This document shows positions 21,740-22,333 of a DNA stretch of 34,434 nt, piece by piece. Position numbers and translations under genes: made by a program. The notes under the pieces are model-generated. The model searched no databases and was not told the origin of the DNA. It worked only from the letters and a program-made list of their open reading frames with translations. Where the stretch lies: assembly GCF_003334385.1 (NCBI RefSeq), contig NZ_QOWN01000046.1; one strand, 5' to 3'. The DNA is from Escherichia coli (GTDB lineage Bacteria > Pseudomonadota > Gammaproteobacteria > Enterobacterales > Enterobacteriaceae). Position 1 is the stretch's first letter. Every line of letters starts with the position of its first letter.

Positions 21740-21771
21740 TTAATGCTAATGTATGCATACATTAGCATTAA
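21740..21771. promoter_or_regulatory. Perfect 32-bp palindrome TTAATGCTAATGTATGCATACATTAGCATTAA, candidate operator or hairpin just upstream of the 160-aa ORF
   Basis: Perfect dyad symmetry; ends about 13 bp before the ORF start; a related copy lies at 22291-22333. Confidence 0.5.
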
Positions 21772-21784
21772 TGAGGGATGATAT

Positions 21785-22267
21785 GTGAGAGACAAAACCA
21801 GGGAGGCCATGCGGCTTTTTTTAGGCGGCAGGTGCTACACGGCTGAAAAACTTGAAAAGGATTATCTGGCTGAAGTGGCTAATTACAGTAACGACCGCTG
21901 GGAAGCACCGCAACGTGCCGCACGCCTGGCTGCCAGCGTAAAGCGTTACAAGACATCAGAAATGCTGCGCTTTATTTTTGCTACCATTGCCTATGATCCC
22001 GATCCAGATTTAACCCCGCTGACTGTGAGACGTTTGTGCAAGGCATTGTTCGGCAGAACCGGAAGCCAGTGGCTGGTTGTTGAAGTTTTTGGGGAGAAGG
22101 GGCGTCAGCACCGCAGCGCGGACAGCAATCCGGAGATGGTGGAAAAAATGGCTGCCAGATATCGTCATGCCGCTGAACTACACTGGTCCGCAACGCTGGC
22201 AGAAATTGAACGGGTAAAGCGGCTTTATCAGATGAAAATTAAGAAATCCAAAAAAGAAGTGGGTTGA
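21785..22267 (+). CDS. Hypothetical protein (160 aa), flanked by related palindromes
   Basis: Open frame with GTG or downstream ATG start; no family recognised. Confidence 0.45.
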   Translation: MRDKTREAMRLFLGGRCYTAEKLEKDYLAEVANYSNDRWEAPQRAARLAASVKRYKTSEMLRFIFATIAYDPDPDLTPLTVRRLCKALFGRTGSQWLVVEVFGEKGRQHRSADSNPEMVEKMAARYRHAAELHWSATLAEIERVKRLYQMKIKKSKKEVG

Positions 22268-22290
22268 CTGCCATTGTTATTCTCCTCCTT

Positions 22291-22333
22291 CATCATTAAT
22301 ACTAATGTATGCATACATTATGCATTAATGATG
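22291..22333. promoter_or_regulatory. Imperfect palindrome sharing the core TAATGTATGCATACATTA with the 21740 site
   Basis: CATCATTAATACTAATGTATGCATACATTATGCATTAATGATG lies just after the stop of the 160-aa ORF. Confidence 0.45.

Follow-up and report, generated by a model that had tools for sequence, protein, structure and literature searches.

Paired palindromes bracketing the plasmid gene yadA as candidate operators of a portable, possibly self-regulating module

Looping repression in Escherichia coli is exemplified by lac, with operators O1 and O2 401 bp apart, by gal (OE and OI) and by deo, whose O1 and O2 lie about 600 bp apart. These systems have a palindromic operator over the core promoter and a second copy hundreds of base pairs off, inside the coding region or past it, at looping distance, an arrangement with which we compare here a pair of palindromes flanking the 160-residue open reading frame (ORF) of the plasmid gene yadA. 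The locus lies in a stretch of 34,434 nucleotides from an E. coli contig (NZ_QOWN01000046.1, assembly GCF_003334385.1), referred to below as the window, with positions counted from its first letter. A further likeness is to KfrA of RK2 and TlpA of pSLT, small alpha-helical plasmid proteins with a long C-terminal helix and a presumed autorepression via an inverted repeat. We propose, at a probability of roughly 0.55, that the two palindromes are twin operators for YadA itself, so that gene and palindromes would form a self-contained autoregulatory cassette with one operator overlapping the promoter and the other at the terminus. Comparison of modules from different plasmids shows that the sites are real, that they are the best-conserved DNA of the module, that they are twinned at fixed positions and that promoter-like signals accompany the upstream copy only. 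That YadA is the binder, that the regulation is negative and that it works by looping or insulation is what we infer from these patterns.

The palindrome pair and the gene between them

The upstream palindrome (21740-21771), which has no strand and is the proposed promoter-overlapping operator, is perfect over 32 bp. Its two 16-nt arms, TTAATGCTAATGTATG and CATACATTAGCATTAA, are 100% complementary and meet without a spacer, and the GTG start codon of yadA (21785..22267, plus strand) sits 13 nt past its end. The downstream palindrome, likewise strandless and the proposed second operator, reads TTAATACTAATGTATGCATACATTA-T-GCATTAA over the equivalent of the 32-mer (22296-22328) and is lengthened by the complementary arms CATCA/TGATG to 22291-22333. 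An 18-nt core, TAATGTATGCATACATTA, is identical in both copies (22303-22320 in the downstream one), and outside it the downstream copy has A for G at 22301 and one extra nucleotide, a T, at 22321 relative to the upstream copy. A sequence-only reading of the window had described a perfect 32-bp palindrome 13 bp before the ORF and an imperfect second copy with the same 18-bp core, both of which are borne out, while its figure of 'about 20 bp' between the stop codon and the second copy is roughly right, the measured distance being 23-28 nt to the palindrome and 35 nt to the core. Its judgement that such dyads are rarely accidental also holds, as the 18-mer, with up to three mismatches allowed, occurs at only two places in the window, namely the two copies, against a shuffle expectation of 0.05, and none of 100 shuffles reached two. 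The close relative pPA45B has a perfect palindrome of 42 bp in the downstream position, and the copy in the window is therefore best regarded as a recently damaged version.

The palindromes do not correspond to known elements among those compared. An Rfam search of the whole window, which belongs to an IncI-complex/IncF-like conjugative plasmid, returned only PK-repZ (18291-18441) and nothing at either palindrome. The consensus of the LexA (SOS) box is CTGT-N8-ACAG, from which the palindrome, reading ATGT-N6-ACAT, differs in both spacing and bases. The consensus sites of CRP, Fur, KorA/KorB and CIRCE were rejected along with that of LexA on spacing or base identity.

The gene carries the name yadA in the R100/ColIb-P9 nomenclature, has no relation to the like-named Yersinia adhesin and is uncharacterised. 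Its product is basic, with an isoelectric point (pI) of 9.8, and an AlphaFold 2 model (mean predicted local distance difference test score, pLDDT, of 89.8) is all-alpha, with six helices of which the last spans residues 116-159 (44 residues). The helix motif RAARLxAAVKRYKT is conserved. Searches of YadA against Pfam, NCBIfam, PHROG and PADLOC gave no match. RefSeq annotation in relatives uses an internal ATG (21809) and a product of 152 residues, which is probably too short: homologues with an ATG aligned to the GTG of the window, together with the Shine-Dalgarno-like GAGGGA before it, favour the 160-residue product, and GTG is the start codon in 35 of 58 unique modules.

Conservation within the module is concentrated in the palindromes. 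Among 18 representative modules, mean identity is 62.6% between the sites, 88.4% in the upstream 32-mer and 89.4% in the downstream 32-mer, and it falls to 28-30%, the random level, in the 32 nt outside each site. The geometry is equally constrained. The upstream palindrome ends 11-15 nt before the start codon in 56 of the 58 unique modules, the downstream palindrome begins 7-16 nt (38 modules) or 27-29 nt (15 modules) past the stop codon, and the centres are 540-546 bp apart in 39 modules and 552-557 bp apart in 17, which places a second operator copy at looping distance. The core, GCTAATGTA..TACATTAGC, is near-invariant. In the 120 metagenome loci this invariance is partly built in, as they were ascertained by the exact 20-nt core, and the loci ascertained by protein, which provide an unbiased check, agree with them. 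Nine stem positions per arm remain near-invariant across protein identities of 20-98%. The near-invariance of the core argues that it is read by its sequence and not through structure alone. Whether gene conversion makes the two copies evolve in concert was examined, and the signal was marginal only, with 2.23 differences between the upstream and downstream sites of a module versus 2.50 between modules. The likeness within modules being so slight an excess, a common trans-acting reader, rather than gene conversion, would keep the sites at consensus.

The module is widespread. By BLAST, at least 4,215 of 72,556 plasmid records contain the palindrome. Klebsiella, Escherichia, Salmonella, Enterobacter and Vibrio are among the genera represented, and the plasmids are of IncF, IncI, IncHI and IncX types, including IncFIB/IncHI1B plasmids of Klebsiella. 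The palindrome is present in 1,069 of 5,426 complete E. coli genomes, where 3,778 of its 3,824 places are on plasmids and 46 on chromosomes. YadA homologues flanked by both palindromes occur on Klebsiella IncFIB/HI1B (81% identity), Morganella IncHI1A (52%) and pSLT-like Salmonella (52%) plasmids, among which the surrounding genes are unrelated. To these can be added 13 loci ascertained by protein in a scan of one genome per species, a set free of bias towards the DNA sites; in the 11 with enough flank (47-98% amino acid identity) the upstream site is present in all 11 and the downstream site in 10. Even among 12 remote homologues found via the protein alone (E = 1e-42 to 5e-5), eight have twin sites with a related core, with variants such as a TATATATA or CGAT centre or a GTTAATG arm; among the remaining four, one (locus L149) has twin sites of different sequence, one has a divergent downstream palindrome only and two have none. 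These remote homologues are found on plasmids, with genes for TrfA, Rep3, a primase-type replicase, the TrwC relaxase or NikA/MobC nearby. The core is thus present nearly everywhere the gene occurs, and its absence from homologous regions, which the sequence-only reading had named as fatal to its proposal, is not what is seen. The only gene that constantly adjoins the sites is yadA, and palindrome-yadA-palindrome is, by these comparisons, a portable unit.

Two of the remote loci deserve separate mention. At L149 both sites have changed together, giving twin TGCTCAGRGATATATCTYCWAGC sites (~425-460 and ~1030-1065), and L150 has a 30-bp downstream palindrome, TAAGGCGAATACATATATGTATTCGCTTTA, at 2217-2246; these sites hint at co-divergence of protein and site. 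Truncated forms of the module also exist. In the Klebsiella-type contigs L026, L053, L063, L130 and L131, yadA is truncated at residue 67 and the downstream palindrome is intact, pointing to a 5' deletion of the module that either recurs or has been inherited.

A predicted promoter on the upstream copy and a possible mechanism

The upstream palindrome appears to overlap the promoter of yadA. On the plus strand of the window a predicted -35 element, TTGTTG (21723..21728), is followed after an 18-nt spacer by a predicted extended -10, TGcTAATGT (21744..21752, with TG at 21744-45 and the hexamer TAATGT at 21747-21752), which falls in the left palindrome arm. Transcription is predicted to start in the right arm (~21759-21761), and the Shine-Dalgarno-like GAGGGA (21773..21778) lies 6 nt before the GTG within one of the purine-rich leaders of 11-15 nt that are found across modules. 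TTG is placed 16-18 nt upstream of TAATGT, reading toward yadA, in 36 of 45 unique upstream contexts, as against 8 of 193 cases for all other site classes and orientations (Fisher p = 2e-26). These break down into 0 of 35 upstream sites read in the opposite orientation, 0 of 36 downstream sites read outward and 2 of 43 read inward, and 4 of 40 and 2 of 39 solo sites, that is single palindromes, in their two orientations. The promoter-coupled flanks are otherwise unrelated between contexts. The downstream copy, by the same test, has no -35 element. The dyad-symmetric site of the upstream copy thus overlaps the -35/-10/+1 region of the predicted promoter, and its centre lies between -10 and +1, the classic place for a repressing operator. 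This promoter coupling of the upstream palindrome, with an extended -10 in the left arm and a TTG -35, is new here.

A protein bound to the upstream dyad would exclude RNA polymerase, and it is for this reason that the upstream palindrome would be an operator; the downstream palindrome would be a second copy of the same operator with no promoter attached. YadA, in the mechanism that we propose, would bind both palindromes and repress its own promoter (negative autoregulation), and its 44-residue C-terminal helix could mediate oligomerisation. The second site could raise the local occupancy of the repressor via a loop of ~0.54 kb, keep transcription from running into or out of the gene, or do both, and expression of yadA would then stay independent of the landing place of the module. 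Insulation of this kind, whether by loop or by roadblock, would account for the retention of both sites wherever the module lands. YadA is favoured as the binder because yadA is the sole constant neighbour of the sites, because the sites carry the signal of a shared reader and because those of L149 changed together. Exclusive linkage of gene and site, the high pI and the lack of a host regulon lend indirect support to the proposed YadA binding. Paired operators had been one of three options offered by the sequence-only reading, and it is the one that fits best, given the conserved promoter overlap and the single consensus of the sites. The regulators suggested there, the helix-turn-helix (HTH) protein at 23614-24261 and the antitoxins, are poor candidates, being absent beside the module in pPA45B, ColIb-P9 and the Klebsiella, Morganella and Salmonella plasmids.

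Folding, mobility and other readers of the sites

A number of observations weigh against autoregulation by YadA through twin operators. The match of the predicted promoter to consensus is weak (3/6 + 3/6 by manual hexamer count), and a generic promoter and terminator scan of 21400-22900 called neither palindrome nor a yadA promoter; the generic scan being blind to it, the promoter is proposed on the grounds of positional enrichment across contexts. The G>A change at 22301 damages the downstream copy of the window at a position where the sampled sites show no variation. No significant profile or fold match to DNA-binding domain families (HTH, ribbon-helix-helix, winged HTH and others) was obtained for YadA, and no informative fold match of any kind, which leaves the proposed binder with neither a recognisable DNA-binding domain nor a fold relative. 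The two remote homologues without detectable sites are L144 and L157. A complete IncX4 plasmid carries a perfect solo palindrome and encodes no YadA homologue. Finally, the symmetry of the sites goes beyond what a duplex-reading protein predicts. Position 5 (T/A/G) co-varies with its mirror, giving 84% Watson-Crick pairs versus 62% expected, and symmetry extends into unique flanks of the downstream sites by a mean of 2.0 bp versus 0.6 bp in permutations. Twin operators for YadA thus leave unexplained the flank symmetry, the presence of solo palindromes on a yadA-less plasmid and the marking of recombination junctions.

It is this symmetry that brings in the possibility, unlikely in our view although by no means negligible, that the palindromes act as folded structures, be it as cruciforms, as hairpins in transferred or lagging single-stranded DNA or as RNA stem-loops at transcript boundaries. 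They would then insulate or stabilise transcripts or serve DNA processing, and YadA would bind the duplex sequence-specifically only in a secondary way, if at all. The extension of symmetry past the 32-mer into locus-specific flanks reaches 3 bp or more in 11 of 37 downstream contexts (1.6 expected; P < 5e-4), and at the non-conserved flank positions p0 and p-1, 53% and 51% of sites have Watson-Crick pairs versus ~28% expected, with all four pair types represented. Together with the co-variation at position 5, compensatory double changes in the remote homologues L147, L148 and L153, the predicted stability of the upstream hairpin (-17.1 kcal/mol as RNA, -11.6 kcal/mol as DNA) and the persistence of symmetric solo sites on a plasmid without yadA, this is consistent with folding. 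Structure alone would not, however, require near-invariant sequence at nine stem positions per arm. The mostly asymmetric centre of the palindrome (TATGCGTA or TACGCATA) disfavours extrusion, and since the predicted transcription start lies inside the upstream palindrome, the yadA mRNA would lack the upstream hairpin. The two copies are not intrinsic terminators, having A+T-rich stems and no T-run, hence no U-tract in RNA, after either of them, and the terminator scan called neither. Pairing specific to RNA, for which an excess of G-U on the sense strand was sought, was rejected, as the single changes at downstream sites show no consistent asymmetry of G-T over A-C. Single-strand promoters or ssi elements of the Frpo type, which belong to conjugative leading regions and have a long imperfect hairpin with -35 and -10 re-formed ~17 bp apart in its stem, are not matched either, the stem here being of 16-21 bp only and the -35 lying outside the palindrome in a duplex context. 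Template-switch correction of quasi-palindromes is known in E. coli and can extend symmetry neutrally; either folded DNA matters, then, or such correction has lengthened the palindromes. Hairpins in single-stranded DNA had also been put forward in the sequence-only reading, and they find support in the symmetry that reaches non-conserved flanks, but the near-invariant core and the promoter overlap are left unexplained by them.

Solo palindromes and sharp homology boundaries raise the question of mobility. Of 226 sites in the sample 51 are solo palindromes, taken from metagenome contigs since a one-palindrome query of plasmids could not tell solo sites from modules; some are remnants of truncated modules (of the type of L020). 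The contigs L034, L062, L126 and L142 cluster around one palindrome and have no yadA, and in L034 and L142 the single palindrome lies directly between ColIb-P9-type flanks, which is the product expected from deletion between the copies. IncX4, IncHI2 and Klebsiella IncFII backbones contain further solo sites. When plasmids are compared, their homology often ends at a palindrome or within ~16 bp of it, so that the palindromes mark mosaic junctions, and between unrelated contexts it stops at the outer palindrome edges. In addition, an extra palindrome (a TTAAGGC...GCCTTAA variant) is found 77-83 bp upstream of a complete module in L073 (858-957), L095 (2587-2692) and L100 (7094-7193), giving three sites in a row, and the same extra site stands alone at the same junction in related contigs (L099).

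From the single-palindrome derivatives, the solo sites in other backbones, the solo site ahead of a complete module and the sharp boundaries it might be supposed that the module is a small mobile cassette, in which YadA uses the palindromes as recombination sites to promote insertion or excision, one palindrome being left behind. We consider this improbable. YadA shows no fold or motif of a recombinase or transposase; Y18 and Y148, although invariant in an alignment of 32 YadA sequences, are not retained in remote homologues, and the wider family has no conserved Ser or Tyr. The module has promoter signals of its own, unlike integron cassettes. A palindrome-less empty site (joined flanks at 80% coverage) was found in none of 977 plasmid records carrying either flank. 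Insertion at symmetric sites would be expected in either orientation, and none of the 28 loci sharing the IncI/F-type left flank has an inverted module, which counts against a cassette. Deletion between repeats of 32-42 bp and breakage at palindromes are, moreover, events expected to be driven by the host. The recombination sites of the sequence-only reading thus retain the coincidence of homology ends with palindromes and the single-palindrome derivatives, and lack a recombinase, inversions and palindrome-less empty sites.

The solo sites also bear on whether another trans-acting factor, a host or co-resident plasmid regulator, uses the palindromes as its operators, with yadA and the genes beside solo sites as its targets. 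This would suit the persistence of the solo site on the yadA-less IncX4 plasmid. It would also suit a solo site on IncHI2 (L005) which has TTGCAA 18 nt upstream of TAATGT, reading toward a gene for a J-domain (DnaJ-like) protein. Solo palindromes lie upstream of two different J-domain genes in plasmid groups unrelated to each other, on IncX4 (L021/L158; CP052800.1, 18292-18323) and on IncHI2 (L005, 3004-3033). The J-domain proteins were considered as hidden relatives of YadA and rejected (hhalign probability at most 1.3%), the two sharing only the J domain. A separate factor nevertheless seems doubtful to us. The site being nearly absent from chromosomes (46 of the 3,824 places), a host regulon using it is unlikely, and a host regulator was dropped for this reason. 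No other gene is consistently linked to the sites. Remote YadA homologues in very different plasmids keep them, and at L149 both changed together.

A long shot would be a minimal mobile or self-propagating cassette in which YadA recognises the palindromes in folded form (hairpin or cruciform) and either promotes their recombination or shields them when the host processes palindromes. Such an element would account for the sharp edges of the module, the solo 'scars', the tandem placement of a site and a module, and the symmetry that reaches the flanks.

Neighbourhood, significance and likeness to known systems

In the window, yadA belongs to a block in which a RelB/RelE-type toxin-antitoxin pair, yacA/yacB (20233-20780), is followed by yacC (20820-21668), encoding a DEDDh 3'-5' exonuclease, by yadA and by a second toxin-antitoxin pair (22837-23389). 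A DEDDh/RNase T-type exonuclease gene adjoins yadA in ColIb-P9 (L019, 2982-3830) as it does in the window, and in L147 such a gene (3111-3977) adjoins the remote yadA homologue beside a TrwC relaxase. Homologues of yadA tend to sit within a few kilobases of replication initiators (RepZ, RepB, RepE, TrfA, Rep3 or a primase-type replicase). A G+C-rich element of ~250 bp occurs as two direct copies with 95% identity (19916-20169 and 22378-22619), each opening with the hairpin GTTAGCGGCCCTGACGGCCCGCTAAC. The copies bracket the yacA-yacB-yacC-yadA block, the second preceding the next toxin-antitoxin pair. This element is probably the reason why thousands of plasmid records show only partial matches to the region, at 80-90% identity, and the ORFs predicted within it (MAESGYGLAGLG...) are unlikely to be genes. 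Past the HTH-like gene, the ORF at 24339-24941 has the look of an IS3-family transposase with an integrase core (...WCSDGFEF...DNGSCYRA...), which suggests an insertion sequence fragment or a junction beyond the second toxin-antitoxin pair.

Clinically important plasmids, resistance and virulence plasmids among them, carry the module very often, while its protein has no assigned function, domain or fold relative, and no published description of the element turned up by sequence, gene name or protein accession. If YadA does bind the dyads, it would found a new DNA-binding family, and the module would be a compact, context-independent and self-insulating expression cassette of ~590 bp, reusable as a synthetic part. 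Binding would also give a direct handle on the role of YadA in plasmids, where the gene is often close to replication or relaxase genes. The palindromes at mosaic junctions may, in addition, help to shape the shuffling of accessory modules between plasmids.

Comparison with described elements that pair a small gene with palindromes sets the yadA module apart from each. Integron cassettes also present a single ORF between palindromes, and the single-site derivatives described above resemble excision products. However, the yadA module has its own promoter signals where a cassette ORF is promoterless, its cargo is always the same gene, and its sites are by inspection perfect and symmetric, whereas attC has R and L boxes and extrahelical bases. 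No integrase is annotated beside the module in the contexts examined, no integrase search of the whole window having been made. RAYT and the TnpA of IS200/IS605 likewise involve a gene of ~150 codons flanked by palindromic repeats. They differ from the yadA module, which encodes a predicted all-alpha protein, is plasmid-borne and has AT-rich sites that occur as two copies per replicon and are not dispersed. The alpha/beta fold of Y1_Tnp, with its HUH motif and catalytic Tyr, is not that predicted for YadA, in whose sequence no HUH motif was seen by inspection and which gave no Y1 transposase match in Pfam.

Functionally, the closest analogues would be the auxiliary-operator systems, lac, gal and deo, and the small helical plasmid autoregulators such as KfrA. 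From the former the module would differ in that the regulator is encoded between its own two operators, the second of which lies just past the stop codon, and in that a whole protein family shares the arrangement, which moves as one unit. YadA, whose binding is a prediction, has in addition no domain of the LacI, GalR or DeoR type. KfrA and TlpA show no detected similarity to YadA in sequence or fold, and their sites are promoter-proximal only and do not bracket the gene. The regulatory logic proposed here is thus a familiar one, and it is the architecture, with operators that would bracket the gene of their own regulator, together with an orphan protein and a high prevalence on plasmids, that sets the yadA module apart.

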